DNA of 64,000 nt from Chryseolinea sp. (GCA_031388805.1 JANMRZ010000112.1:17885-81884), one strand, 5' to 3'; numbered from the stretch's first letter, positions 3 to 8,085 are shown. Notes: a model not told the origin generated them from the sequence alone. A program made the numbers and translations.

Positions 3-1229
3 ACCAGTGGAAGTAGTTATTCAGGTACTGCCACTATTCCTTATACCGGTGGTAATGGTACTTCTTATTCGGCAGGTTCTGCTATTTCATCAACGGGTGT
101 AACCGGGCTTTCAGCAACGCTTGCTTCGGGCACATTAGCAAGTGGCGCAGGTAACGTAACATTCAATATCTCTGGTACACCTGCATCATCTGGTACTGCA
201 TCTTTTGCTATTTCATTTGGTGGGCAATCTTGTACTTTAAGTTTAACGGTTAGCGCTTCTTCTTCAACAGCAGATTGTAGTACACTATCGGGTGTGGAGA
301 AAATTGTTTGTCTTGCTGATGCATTTAAAGCTACCCTTAGCTCATCTCAGGTTTCTACGGTTCAATTATCCTATACATTTTCCAACATCAAAACATGGTC
401 GAACTTACCGGCTGCTATGTCGGCACGTTTAGGTATTAAGTTGGGATCTTTGAGCTCAACTCAATTGGCTGCGGCAAACGCAATAATTCAGGAAATAAGT
501 GGAACGACTGCAAATGAAGGCTGGGATGAAGTTGAACAATTGTTGTTGGCGGATGACTATCTCCTGGCCAACGGAGGAGGCAGTACCTATGGTGCTGGTA
601 ATTATTACCTCGCTTTCTTCGGAACACCAGCGACCACAGGTACTTTTGAGATAATGATGACCGGGCATCATAAGACAGTTGCTAATACTTACAAGAACAA
701 TGCGATGATTGGGGCTACACCACACTTCGCAGCCATTGAACCTGTATCATTTACAACGAGTGGAGTAACCTATGCTCCCATTAGCCAGGAACGTGACGCA
801 TTTGTTGCCTTGCTGGCAGCGTTGAGTGATACAGAAAAGGCCACAGCAAAATCAAGCTCAACCTTTTCAGATATATTGCTTCCACCAGGAAAAGAGTGGC
901 AGTTCCCTACAACCTATTCAGGTTTGCAGTGTAGTGGATTGACTTCAAACCAAAAAGCGTTGGTGCTGGAAGTGATCAAGACATACGTTAATGATGTTGA
1001 TGACACGAATGCTGCAACTATTCTGGCTACCTACACGGCAGAATTAGACAACACATACATTACGTACAGTGGAACAACTGCAGTGAATACAAAAAATGAT
1101 TACTTCAGAATAGATGGCCCGCATGTATGGATAGAATTTAGTGTTCCAAACGGAGTCATCTTGAGCGGAGTACATTTTCACTCAATCTGGAGAGATCGCG
1201 TAACGGACTATGGCGGAACAAAGAATTAA
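3..1229 (+). CDS. DUF3500-domain protein, 5'-truncated by the window edge, with a Ser/Thr/Gly-rich N-terminal beta-domain
   Basis: The frame of ORF 294..1229 stays open back to position 3 (TSGSSYSGTATIPYTGGNGTSYSAG...GTPASSGTASFAISFGGQSCTL...DCSTLSGVEKIVC). The C-terminal part has YYLAFFGTP, GHH, YFRIDGPHVWIEF and HFHSIWRD, typical of DUF3500, and is paralogous to 3008..4372. Confidence 0.8.
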   Translation, partial: TSGSSYSGTATIPYTGGNGTSYSAGSAISSTGVTGLSATLASGTLASGAGNVTFNISGTPASSGTASFAISFGGQSCTLSLTVSASSSTADCSTLSGVEKIVCLADAFKATLSSSQVSTVQLSYTFSNIKTWSNLPAAMSARLGIKLGSLSSTQLAAANAIIQEISGTTANEGWDEVEQLLLADDYLLANGGGSTYGAGNYYLAFFGTPATTGTFEIMMTGHHKTVANTYKNNAMIGATPHFAAIEPVSFTTSGVTYAPISQERDAFVALLAALSDTEKATAKSSSTFSDILLPPGKEWQFPTTYSGLQCSGLTSNQKALVLEVIKTYVNDVDDTNAATILATYTAELDNTYITYSGTTAVNTKNDYFRIDGPHVWIEFSVPNGVILSGVHFHSIWRDRVTDYGGTKN

Positions 1230-1236
1230 GATTTGG

Positions 1237-5729: not shown

Positions 5730-5817
5730 TGAAAAATTTTCTTAAAACAGGTGCGGCATGGAGTAGCGACAGTGGGGAGGGCCGCCCTATTTTTAACAAA
5801 TTCTAATTGCGATTTCT

Positions 5818-8085
5818 GTGAAAAGAGTGAAGTATATCCTTTTTATTATCGGACTTCTGATAGCGGCTTATTCGGCATCTGGTCATGGGAGTATGATCAG
5901 AGGCAATGTATCAGATTCTTTATCGAATGAAGTTCTGACGGGTGCAACTTTAGTATTAAATGATACGCAGGAAATATCCTCAACAGATCAGCTTGGAAAT
6001 TTTAAGTTTGACAATCTGGAAGGTGGTACGTATCGATTGAAAGTAACTTTCATAGGGTATAAGCCCTGTTTCACTACCGTTATTGTTTCGGGCAATGAAA
6101 TCAAAACGATTAGCATCAAGCTGTCTCCATCAAGCTTAAAACTGGAAGAGATAACCGTTACCACTTCGCATACCACTGAGCAAGCAATGACCACGATCAA
6201 TAAAATTGATGTTGCCTTGCGCCCGTTAAAATCATCTCAGGATATTCTACGAATGATTCCAGGTGTAGTAACGGCACAACATGCGGGCGGTGGAAAAGCA
6301 GAGCAAATTTTTCTTCGTGGATTCGATGCGGATCACGGAACTGATATTGCACTAACTGTTGACGGAATGCCGGTGAATATGGTATCGCACGCACACGGAC
6401 AAGGATATGCAGATCTGCATTTTGTTACGCCTGAGATAATTGATTACCTGGATTTTAATAAAGGCCCTTACTATAGCAAAGTTGGAGATTTTAATACAGC
6501 GGGGTATGCTAATTTTCACACGAAAAATTCATTGGATCAAAGCAGTGTAAAATTTGAAGCAGGAAAATTTGACACCTACCGCACGGTGGCATTGCTCGAT
6601 TTGCTGGGAGATAATTCAAAAAATCAAAATGCGTATGTGTCTGCGGAGTATTATTATTCCAATGGTCCATTTGAAAGTCCGCAGAATTTTAACAGGCTTA
6701 ATCTTTTTGGAAAATTCAACGGACGCATTGACGATGATAAAATAGTAAGCATTAGTGTTTCTACTTTTAAAAGTGAATGGGATGCTTCAGGACAATTACC
6801 CGAACGTGCTATATCCAGTGGATTGGTCGACCGCTTTGGCGCAATTGATAATACAGAGGGAGGTATTACCGGAAGAAGCAATGTAAATTTAGCGTTGACC
6901 AAAGTGTATGATGACGGATCCAGTTTTAGAAATCAGGTTTACTTTTCCAATTACAATTTTGAGTTATATTCCAACTTCACCTATTTCCTTCATGATTCGA
7001 TCAATGGAGATGAGATTAAACAAAAAGAAAAAAGAAATATTTACGGATATTCAGGTACATATCAGAAGGAGATAGGTATAGGCAATAAAAGCATTCGCAC
7101 AGAAGCAGGAGTGGGAATCCGGTATGATGATATTTCTAATATTGAGTTGTCGCATGTAAAGGCACGGTATACTTTTATTAATCCTGTGGCATTAGGAGAT
7201 GTTGATCAAATTAATGCAAGTGTGTATGCAGATGCTACGATGAATCTTACACAACGATTGAGCATCAATGCAGGAGTCAGGCTTGATGCATTTTCATTTC
7301 AATATTCCAATAAACTGGATAGTCTTTATTCCAGGCAATCATCGGCAAAAAGTACGGTGAGTCCGAAATTGAATCTCTATTATAATATCAACCCTGATTT
7401 TCAAATCTATTTGAAAAACGGAATTGGCTTTCATTCCAATGATGCGCGTGTTGTTGTAACGCAACAAGTTCAGAATACATTGCCAAAGGCGTATGGAACA
7501 GACTTGGGTCTTTTTGTTAAACCGTTCAAAAAATTATTTGTGAATGTTGCGCTGTGGCAGATTCAATTGCAGCAGGAGTTTGTCTATGTAGGAGATGAAG
7601 CGGTAATAGAGGCCAGTGGAAAAACGCAGCGCTACGGAGTAGATATTTCACTTCGATACCAGGTACTTCCCTGGTTGTTTGCTGACTTTGATGGAAATTA
7701 TTCTCATGGCCGTTCAATTGATGATTTGGAAGGACAGAATTATATTCCGTTAGCACCAACCATTACAAGTATCGGAGGTCTTACGGCTTCTTTCGAGCAA
7801 GGGTTAAAAGCAAGTCTTCGATATCGGTATGTTTCGGATAGACCTGCAAATGAAGACAATTCTGTTTCTGCGCAAGGTTATTTTTTGCTTGAGGGAGCGA
7901 TTACCTATACCAAACAAAAATTCCAGTTAAGTCTGAATGCCACGAACATATTAAATCAAAATTGGAACGAAGCACAATTTGATACGGAGACACGATTGAA
8001 AGGAGAACAAACAGGAATATCCGAATTATGTTTTACCCCGGGTGAACCCATTCTTGTTAAAGCCGGGATTTCATTTTTCTTTTAG
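5818..8085 (+). CDS. TonB-dependent receptor with N-terminal carboxypeptidase-regulatory-like domain
   Basis: GTG start, signal peptide, plug motif AQHAGGGKAEQIFLRGFDADHGTD...VDGMPVN, beta-barrel repeats, C-terminal Phe (ISFFF). Confidence 0.88.
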   Translation: MKRVKYILFIIGLLIAAYSASGHGSMIRGNVSDSLSNEVLTGATLVLNDTQEISSTDQLGNFKFDNLEGGTYRLKVTFIGYKPCFTTVIVSGNEIKTISIKLSPSSLKLEEITVTTSHTTEQAMTTINKIDVALRPLKSSQDILRMIPGVVTAQHAGGGKAEQIFLRGFDADHGTDIALTVDGMPVNMVSHAHGQGYADLHFVTPEIIDYLDFNKGPYYSKVGDFNTAGYANFHTKNSLDQSSVKFEAGKFDTYRTVALLDLLGDNSKNQNAYVSAEYYYSNGPFESPQNFNRLNLFGKFNGRIDDDKIVSISVSTFKSEWDASGQLPERAISSGLVDRFGAIDNTEGGITGRSNVNLALTKVYDDGSSFRNQVYFSNYNFELYSNFTYFLHDSINGDEIKQKEKRNIYGYSGTYQKEIGIGNKSIRTEAGVGIRYDDISNIELSHVKARYTFINPVALGDVDQINASVYADATMNLTQRLSINAGVRLDAFSFQYSNKLDSLYSRQSSAKSTVSPKLNLYYNINPDFQIYLKNGIGFHSNDARVVVTQQVQNTLPKAYGTDLGLFVKPFKKLFVNVALWQIQLQQEFVYVGDEAVIEASGKTQRYGVDISLRYQVLPWLFADFDGNYSHGRSIDDLEGQNYIPLAPTITSIGGLTASFEQGLKASLRYRYVSDRPANEDNSVSAQGYFLLEGAITYTKQKFQLSLNATNILNQNWNEAQFDTETRLKGEQTGISELCFTPGEPILVKAGISFFF

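Follow-up and report, generated by a model that had tools for sequence, protein, structure and literature searches.

Genomic linkage of exported DUF3500 proteins with histidine-tipped HupE/UreJ-2 permeases at a candidate metal-handling locus of Chryseolinea

Organization of the locus

This report concerns a locus in a 64,000-nucleotide stretch of Chryseolinea DNA (here called the window; JANMRZ010000112.1:17885-81884 of GCA_031388805.1, or G000:C167:17885-81884 in our own numbering), in which genes for lipoproteins of the DUF3500 family stand directly before genes for HupE/UreJ-2 permeases, with a gene for a TonB-dependent receptor (TBDR) behind them. Coordinates are window positions unless another contig is named. 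Five plus-strand genes make up the part of the locus inside the window, all of them lying where the original prediction had placed them and each matched by Pfam. The first, DUF3500-1 (positions 3 to 1229; Pfam DUF3500, 210 bits), is cut at the window's edge, which leaves the C-terminal 408 amino acids of a 567-aa lipoprotein and removes its N-terminal part (full gene, G000:C167:17410-19113). It overlaps by 20 nt the gene for HupE-1 (1210 to 2421), a 403-aa protein in which an N-terminal-His domain precedes the permease. After 586 nt there follow DUF3500-2 (3008 to 4372, from ATG 3008), in which a lipobox precedes an IPT/TIG and a DUF3500 domain (Pfam TIG and DUF3500, 206 bits) and whose longest open reading frame would run from TTG 2966 to 4372 (468 aa); HupE-2 (4395 to 5729), a 444-aa protein of the same composition as HupE-1 that begins 22 nt beyond DUF3500-2; and the 755-aa TBDR (5818 to 8085; Pfam CarboxypepD_reg, Plug, and TonB barrel). 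The close packing of the DUF3500 and permease genes makes co-transcription and translational coupling plausible. A terminator then closes the unit.

Upstream of the window lies a third DUF3500 lipoprotein gene (DUF3500-0, 365 aa), itself preceded by a two-component system consisting of a LytS-type histidine kinase (His_kinase, PF06580; L009:14255-15319) and a Response_reg-LytTR regulator (L009:15316-16002). The complete order is therefore kinase and regulator, DUF3500-0, DUF3500-1, HupE-1, the 586-nt gap, DUF3500-2, HupE-2, TBDR, and terminator. Profile searches confirmed both families on which the prediction was built: the three DUF3500 copies score 205.9 to 212.8 bits against PF12006 (cut-off, 27.2), and HupE-1 and HupE-2 score 119.6 and 135.1 bits, respectively, against PF13795 (HupE_UreJ_2; cut-off, 24.5), while the classical HupE/UreJ profile, PF04955, stays below its threshold.

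Conservation of the DUF3500-permease pair

The distribution of this gene pair was surveyed at 80 HupE/UreJ-2 loci, taken from one genome per species, by screening the neighbouring genes with hidden Markov models built for the purpose. The original prediction hinged on conservation of the linkage, and conserved it is: a same-strand DUF3500 gene lies within 1.5 kb of the permease gene at 53 of the 80 loci, in nine phyla (Bacteroidota, Acidobacteriota, Verrucomicrobiota, Bacillota, Actinomycetota, Pseudomonadota, Myxococcota, Armatimonadota, and Deinococcota), and at 44 of the 58 loci where the permease has a recognizable N-terminal domain. All-against-all clustering of the neighbours at the 80 loci gave no other recurrent family, save a sensor kinase at 10 of them. 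The adjacency is far beyond chance, and DUF3500 and HupE/UreJ-2 genuinely form a conserved functional pair. Five of six homologue loci inspected individually show it, with DUF3500 directly followed by the permease in Mucilaginibacter, Chitinophaga, a Cyclobacteriaceae metagenome-assembled genome (MAG), and a Chryseolinea-like contig, and with the order DUF3500-DUF3500-permease in Hymenobacter. In Aestuariibaculum lutulentum, DUF3500 is followed by a 218-aa protein that comprises the N-terminal-His domain alone, held by a C-terminal membrane anchor, and there is no permease. That the domain partners DUF3500 without a permease speaks for a direct interplay of the two.

Members of the genus and order carry two DUF3500 classes, and the pairing follows the division between them. 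The class that scores 275 to 317 bits in Pfam has ordinary signal peptides, and all 29 of its copies, two from this genome and 27 from relatives, lack a neighbouring permease gene. The class of lipoprotein type that scores about 205 bits is followed by a permease in all nine copies (three here and six in relatives, among them the C. soli copy at its TBDR locus). The pairing is strictly confined to a single exported DUF3500 clade whose members are often lipoproteins. Linked DUF3500 proteins are exported at most loci: in a crude screen, 38 of 51 had a signal peptide or a lipobox, lipoproteins of Gram-positive bacteria among them. A search of 60 evenly sampled Bacteroidota genomes did not find DUF3500, a result that shows only that the family is patchy and is silent on linkage. 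The pairing of DUF3500 with HupE/UreJ-2 was not found in the literature searched, and DUF3500 is not mentioned in the text or the examined supplements of the paper on histidine-tipped permeases discussed below (PMC12537917).

Two further arrangements were seen in the course of the survey. One of the unlinked DUF3500 paralogues of this genome (L001, G000:C186, 1459-3543), which has a signal peptide, adjoins a gene for a Pyr_redox_3 flavoprotein; the two genes are neighbours in three further genomes of the genus as well, an arrangement that recalls fungal clusters of a monooxygenase with DUF3500. In Sinomicrobium kalidii, a DUF3500 gene stands with an OmpR/HisKA system and a different TBDR-like protein. 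The Aestuariibaculum and Sinomicrobium loci are variant architectures of what we call the short DUF3500 clade.

The permeases and their N-terminal domain

HupE-1 and HupE-2 are 38% identical, and each has about 170 periplasmic residues that begin with a histidine. The original prediction had placed this histidine directly after the signal peptide in both proteins, and the predicted cleavage sites agree: they fall between Ala and HPMP in HupE-1, making His32 the first mature residue (nucleotides 1303 to 1305), and between Ala and HPSP in HupE-2, making it His36 (nucleotides 4500 to 4502). In an alignment of 95 diverse relatives, drawn from a search of 1.8 billion representative proteins, this histidine is 98% conserved and the alanine at position -1 is 87% conserved. 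Four further residues of the N-terminal domain, H93, H159, D150, and D168, are 78 to 92% conserved in the same alignment. In the membrane part, the motifs HIxEGxDH, GHS, and HG are present in both proteins, again as predicted, and H219, D225, H226, H270, E290, H303, H324, N350, E354, and Q357 are at least 95% conserved, with E313 at 93%.

An AlphaFold2 model of HupE-2 (mean predicted local distance difference test score [pLDDT], 93.9) shows an N-terminal beta-sandwich (residues 36 to about 200) and then a helical bundle. Its top fold match in the PDB is 9gce, the copper-bound form of Ang-1 (E value, 1.1e-3; template modelling [TM] score, 0.57), and the zinc proteins ZrgA and PA4063 come next. 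Ang-1 and Ang-2 are "anglerase" domains, tethered to a HupE/UreJ-2 permease, that, it has been proposed, catch metal and deliver it to the channel; their N-terminal histidine forms a mono-histidine brace, with a dissociation constant of about 60 to 75 nM for Cu2+ in both and of 220 nM for Ni2+ in Ang-1 (PMC12537917; PDB 9gce). The proteins of the window resemble the anglerase permeases in having histidine as residue 1 after cleavage and an extracytoplasmic domain ahead of PF13795, and in their overall plan of a periplasmic Ig-like beta-sandwich, a linker, and a membrane domain with conserved His and Asp residues. By analogy with Ang-1 and Ang-2, the N-terminal histidine would form a brace of the same kind and bind Cu2+ or Ni2+.

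Membership of the domain in the Ang-1 or Ang-2 family was nevertheless rejected at the sequence level. A sequence search of the PDB with the HupE protein gave no match, and the profile of the 95 sequences did not find the Ang-1 sequence there. A hmmsearch with the N-terminal domain gave at most 4.4 bits to Ang-1 and at most 2.4 bits to Ang-2 (sequences from the supplement of PMC12537917), and hhalign gave a probability of 5% for Ang-1. In profile comparison the domain comes closest to DUF6702 (hhalign probability, 79%; E value, 1.7e-5; 95 columns starting at His1, with His1 aligned), which is termed a "metal sequesterase" in PMC12537917; the Pfam scan of the domain gave no DUF6702 match at an E value below 0.01. 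The distribution differs as well: Ang-1 is for the most part a domain of Pseudomonadota and Ang-2 occurs in Actinomycetota only (PMC12537917, Nat Commun 2025), whereas the domain of the window belongs to a family that is found in many phyla and is tied to a DUF3500 partner, and it has more conserved candidate ligands (H93, H159, D150, and D168). We therefore treat it, on the strength of these sequence comparisons, as a new, third sequence family of beta-sandwich domains with an N-terminal histidine.

ZrgA of Vibrio cholerae and PA4063 of Pseudomonas aeruginosa share the fold class of the N-terminal domain and have accessory roles beside metal importers, but they are free soluble proteins of other sequence families that bind zinc through internal His-rich sites and not through an N-terminal histidine. 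The classical nickel and cobalt permeases of the HupE/UreJ type share the H-x4-G-x-D-H, GHS, and HG core and, like the genes here, lie in an operon with a putative metalloprotein client; they differ in belonging to PF04955 and not PF13795, in lacking the large added periplasmic domain, and in that the candidate client here is outside the cytoplasm. The genome encodes one more HupE_UreJ_2 protein, a short 197-aa form without the N-terminal domain (L155, G000:C34:69000-83289, 9479-14289), whose gene lies directly 5' of two M1 (zinc) peptidase genes and is thus another HupE/UreJ-2 permease gene beside those of putative metalloenzymes.

The DUF3500 proteins

DUF3500-1 and DUF3500-2 are 46% identical. 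The original prediction had recognized the second copy as a lipoprotein with an acidic segment from position +2, and we find the lipobox LVAC followed by NDDEE; the first copy is a lipoprotein too, with FTAC followed by KDDE, and the corresponding cysteine of the upstream copy is followed by SGDEDV. A lipobox with an acidic K/N-D-D-E motif is typical of surface lipoproteins in Bacteroidota, and the DUF3500 proteins of this locus may be exported to the cell surface. In DUF3500-1 the lipobox is followed by two Ser/Thr/Gly-rich repeats of about 100 aa (L009:17530-18150 and window positions 3 to 290) and then by the DUF3500 domain. Each repeat has conserved cysteines (TCSSATFSATATSGSSYSGTATIPYTGGNG...FGGQSC) and no Pfam match, and is probably an Ig-like spacer domain. 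Ahead of the DUF3500 domain of DUF3500-2 stand two cysteines, C129 and C140 (window positions 3389 to 3430), that occur together in 41 of 80 linked sequences, almost never singly, and are confined to some clades of Bacteroidota, a pattern that would fit a disulfide bond in a protein destined for export.

The GHH and HxH motifs that the prediction had noted in both copies are present (GHH at residues 221 to 223 and HFH at 391 to 393 of the DUF3500-1 fragment in the window; GHH and HYH in DUF3500-2) and proved invariant across the family alignment. In DUF3500-2 they belong to a larger set of conserved residues, H257, H258, E425, H439, H441, R445, D446, and D450. When conservation was compared in 80 linked and 29 unlinked sequences, all of these were invariant except D446, which is invariant in the linked sequences and 79% conserved in the unlinked ones. 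R179 and Y414 show little or no variation in either the linked or the unlinked clade, and for Y236, R416, and D446 conservation is 79% or more in each. The linked clade is distinct from the unlinked one and has signature residues of its own, and with the shared polar residues it has kept a full putative enzyme-like pocket, beyond the possible metal ligands. Because this putative pocket of invariant His-His/Glu/His-x-His/Arg/Asp residues is kept, the exported DUF3500 is, as judged from sequence, most likely a metal-dependent enzyme. In the structural model of DUF3500-2, pLDDT is 95 to 99 across the DUF3500 domain. On a predicted beta-hairpin (residues 422 to 446), E425, H439, and H441 would face the same side.

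A Foldseek search with this model gave a single significant match in the PDB, 9x86 (E value, 4.4e-14; TM score on the target, 0.80), annotated as "dehydratase ApmL in amipurimycin biosynthesis"; in the sequence search the same protein is listed as Amc20, and its GHH and HxH align with those of DUF3500-2. No paper on the 9x86 protein was found in the literature searched. A fungal DUF3500 protein is a genetic candidate for the enzyme that cleaves the ring of 1,2,3,5-tetrahydroxybenzene (bioRxiv 10.1101/2023.06.06.543907). The original statement that DUF3500 has no assigned function is thus partly outdated by these two relatives. ApmL/Amc20 and the fungal protein belong to the same Pfam family as the DUF3500 proteins of the locus and share the conserved GHH and HxH-x3-R, and the fold agrees with that of 9x86. 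They serve intracellular pathways, however (antibiotic biosynthesis and gallate catabolism), whereas the DUF3500 proteins of the locus are exported lipoproteins that carry TIG or repeat domains and form the distinct clade described above.

The TonB-dependent receptor

The TBDR matches PF07715 and PF00593 above threshold and has a TonB-box-like sequence, EEITVTT, at residue 110. Its plug carries the motif FLRGFDxDHGTD...SHAHGQGYADLHF (also written ...VDGxPVNMxSHAHGQGYADLHF) at residues 155 to 202 (window positions 6280 to 6420), and nearly all residues of the motif are conserved in 19 members of the TBDR subfamily, including sequences from Variovorax and Myxococcota. The plug motif is rich in His and Asp and may be a direct metal-binding site. 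A SusC/SusD-type locus was considered and rejected, as the receptor has no SusC-type NCBIfam match and there is no SusD-like gene among the neighbours.

The closest orthologue (68% identity), from Chryseolinea soli, is encoded directly 3' of a DUF3500-permease pair, with a divergent LytS/LytTR system. Members of the subfamily are found 3' of the pair also in an uncultured Flavobacterium MAG (766 bits) and in Limibacter armeniacum (45% identity over the full length); in a Myxococcota MAG, the TBDR 3' of the pair is a more distant one. The receptor is facultative, most loci with the pair being without it. The original prediction of a dedicated pathway made up of DUF3500, HupE permease, and TBDR is therefore upheld in part: the pair is conserved and the TBDR subfamily recurs beside it in several Bacteroidota, but the receptor is a facultative member. 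Paralogues of the TBDR in the genus that are about 48% identical to it lie in clusters of the form DUF4331-DUF4331-TPR-TBDR, and in one genome of the order the cluster runs from a TPR protein through a short HupE_UreJ_2 protein to a TBDR. The TBDR subfamily as a whole seems to be tied to modules of the HupE/UreJ-2 type.

Regulatory sequences

LytS/LytTR systems are facultative at loci with the pair; they stand beside it in C. soli, at two Flavobacterium loci, in a Chitinophagaceae MAG, and, more weakly, in Arcicella. In the Chryseolinea locus, the DNA 5' of DUF3500-0 (L009:16003-16264) shares about 80% identity, across roughly 230 nt, with the regulatory region 5' of DUF3500-2 (2740 to 3007, plus strand), which belongs to the second unit; both transcription units are under near-identical control regions. 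The proteins encoded downstream of these regions are 38 to 46% identical, and the difference suggests either strong selection on the regulatory DNA or recent conversion of the control region.

Both regions contain direct repeats with a period of 21 nt. The repeat TCGCAG-N15-TCGCAA occurs twice 5' of DUF3500-0 (L009:16020-16046 and 16164-16190) and once 5' of DUF3500-2 (window positions 2900 to 2926), where a degenerate version, TCGTGG-N15-TCGCAA, is also found (2758 to 2784). C. soli has TCGCGG-N15-TCGCAA in the equivalent place, other orders have ACCxCA-N15-ACCxCA, and repeats of this period are present upstream in each of at least five other Bacteroidota loci that combine LytS/LytTR with the pair. 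A spacing of 21 nt fits operators of the LytTR type, and we regard these repeats, from their sequence and position, as candidate LytTR operators. No riboswitch or other Rfam element was found upstream. Neither the recurring TBDR subfamily nor LytTR control of the pair was found in the literature searched.

History of the two cassettes and neighbouring genes

The original prediction described a module repeated twice in tandem. Two DUF3500-permease pairs followed by a TBDR are indeed present, but they are old paralogous cassettes that have come to lie side by side, and a third DUF3500 gene belongs to the locus. In phylogenetic trees, DUF3500-0 falls in the short clade with proteins of C. soli, Limibacter, and Aestuariibaculum; DUF3500-1 groups with copies from Xanthocytophaga and Chitinophagaceae; and DUF3500-2 groups with the TBDR-linked copy of C. 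soli and with copies from Chitinophaga and Flavobacterium. HupE-1 belongs to a long-branch clade that is elsewhere the partner of the short DUF3500 clade, and HupE-2 belongs to the main clade. With three DUF3500 and two HupE copies in separate old clades, a recent tandem duplication is rejected; the trees indicate that two old cassette types were brought together and that a third DUF3500 gene was inserted within an old pair.

A weak terminator-like hairpin, found by consensus scan only, lies 3' of HupE-1 (2592 to 2619, plus strand). The terminator that closes the second unit is a strong bidirectional hairpin with a 13-bp stem (8167 to 8198), shared with a convergent efflux operon on the minus strand (8263 to 14272) that encodes a TolC-like protein, a multidrug-type resistance-nodulation-division (RND) permease, an adaptor, and an ArsR/SmtB regulator. 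This operon was considered as a linked heavy-metal exporter and rejected, the pump being of the multidrug type and convergently transcribed.

Function of the locus

HupE and UreJ genes are found within the operons of the enzymes they serve, hydrogenase and urease. A search of this genome, which is 97.6% complete, gave no match to the urease alpha subunit (PF00449) or to [NiFe] hydrogenase (PF00374). Supply of nickel to urease or hydrogenase is therefore rejected, and the classical HupE/UreJ job does not apply here. With moderate confidence, we suggest instead that DUF3500 is an extracytoplasmic metal-dependent partner served by the His-tipped domain, and that the locus as a whole handles a transition metal in the cell envelope under the control of a sensor. 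The TBDR would bring metal or a metal complex across the outer membrane, and the tethered His-tipped domain would capture the metal in the periplasm and pass it either to the co-encoded DUF3500, which we favour, or into the permease, which is lined with His, Asp, and Glu. LytS/LytTR would turn on both transcription units through the direct repeats spaced at 21 nt. The reading of DUF3500 as a client is favoured because the pairing is strict and clade specific, the genes are close packed, the enzyme-like pocket is retained, and the Aestuariibaculum partner comes without a permease, and because HupE/UreJ genes sit with the enzymes that are their clients. The direction of the hand-over, the enzyme activity, the surface exposure, and the function of the operators are points that we infer. 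Copper would be the most probable metal, with nickel second, given the mono-histidine brace chemistry described in PMC12537917.

A more specific form of this proposal, which we offer tentatively and at less than even confidence, is that the linked DUF3500 clade is a new class of extracytoplasmic, perhaps surface-displayed, copper or nickel enzyme loaded directly by the His-brace domain, or else that its enzymatic step is coupled to permeation, as in Fet3-Ftr1 and EfeUOB. The first version would amount to a metallochaperone-client pair conserved across nine phyla; in the second, the coupled step might be a redox change of the metal or the cleavage of a polyphenol-type chelator.

Several observations weigh against DUF3500 as a client. 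At 27 of the 80 HupE/UreJ-2 loci there is no DUF3500 gene, and in S. kalidii a DUF3500 protein of the linked clade occurs without a permease. The N-terminal domain has no sequence match to Ang-1 or Ang-2, and the fold match is modest (E value, 1e-3; TM score, 0.57). Metal uptake genes are usually controlled by Fur, Zur, NikR, or a riboswitch, and no such control was found here. Metal import into the cytoplasm by the permease would not be obviously useful to an extracytoplasmic client, and a DUF3500 protein on the cell surface would be parted from the periplasmic domain by the outer membrane. For this clade, moreover, the favoured reading draws on gene arrangement, sequences, and predicted structures.

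The main rival to DUF3500 as a client, which we judge unlikely, is uptake by capture and relay. Here DUF3500 would be a non-enzymatic lipoprotein, at the surface or anchored in the membrane, that binds metal or a metallophore and feeds the TBDR, the His-tipped domain, and HupE, with the cytoplasm as the end of the path; it would be comparable to the substrate-binding lipoprotein of an importer or to the BtuG/HmuY-type lids of TBDRs in Bacteroidota. Such a role would suit a protein with the lipobox and acidic motif of Bacteroidota surface lipoproteins, and would suit the arrangement in four Bacteroidota lineages in which the TBDR is directly downstream; where DUF3500 is absent, the same TBDR subfamily still pairs with HupE/UreJ-2. 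Several DUF3500 genes per permease could be accommodated, like multiple binding proteins, and the lipoprotein form in Gram-positive bacteria would be on the same membrane face as the His-tipped domain. HupE family members are, moreover, known importers (Brito et al. 2010, as cited in PMC12537917). A mere binding protein would, however, leave unexplained why the linked clade keeps invariant, enzyme-like Arg, Tyr, and Asp residues beyond the metal ligands, and its relatives are enzymes; nor does relay sit well with the Aestuariibaculum partner that lacks a permease, or with the majority of loci that lack a TBDR.

A second rival, in our view improbable, likens the locus to the envelope metal-stress systems CopABCD/PcoABCD-CopRS, with a two-component sensor that detects excess periplasmic copper and induces the other parts, DUF3500 as a periplasmic redox metalloprotein in the place of CopA, the TBDR in that of CopB, and the chaperone-permease with its His1 in that of CopC-CopD. 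The architecture does match part for part: as in CopC-CopD and YcnJ-YcnI, a beta-sandwich with an N-terminal histidine is fused or coupled to an inner membrane permease, and, as in CopABCD-CopRS, a periplasmic metalloprotein, an outer membrane protein, and two-component control stand alongside. The N-terminal-His copper site of the anglerases resembles that of CopC (PMC12537917), control lies with a membrane two-component system and not with a cytoplasmic metalloregulator, and a fungal DUF3500 member has been proposed to be an oxygen-dependent ring-cleaving enzyme. The likeness is an analogy of architecture only, however. Pfam found none of the domains of CopC (PF04234), CopD (PF05425), multicopper oxidase, or CopB in the proteins of the locus, which are without sequence homology to Cop/Pco components; TBDRs import and do not export; the locus has neither a copper efflux ATPase nor CusCBA, and the RND pump encoded next to it belongs to the multidrug type; and the sensor is a LytS/LytTR system and not OmpR/HisKA, the LytS type of kinase having no known role in metal sensing.

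Very improbable is a role in the use of an organic substrate, in which an enzyme of the DUF3500 family at the surface would act on a compound of polyhydroxylated or aromatic nature, the TBDR would import the product, and the HupE-like protein would be the product permease. DUF3500 relatives do act on a sugar-nucleoside intermediate and on tetrahydroxybenzene, and a surface lipoprotein with a TBDR resembles the layout of nutrient-uptake loci, but the HupE-like protein still has, in its membrane part, the metal signature of HupE/UreJ (His/Asp/Glu), the tethered domain has an N-terminal histidine and the fold of a metal-binding protein, the TBDR is not of the SusC type and lacks a SusD partner, and the pair is found also in Gram-positive bacteria with nothing else conserved nearby.

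Conclusions

The permease type with a His-tipped "fishing" domain has been known only since 2025 (PMC12537917) and is without an assigned partner, and DUF3500 is a large family, extending from bacteria to fungi, with almost no biochemistry. The tie between one DUF3500 clade and the clade of HupE/UreJ-2 permeases with an N-terminal histidine gives both families a functional context that can be tested. The pairing leads us to expect a metal cofactor in DUF3500 and suggests a specific extracytoplasmic partner for the permeases, whose role would then go beyond scavenging. It further implicates a LytTR regulon and the TBDR subfamily with the His/Asp-rich plug in the handling of trace metals by soil Bacteroidota.

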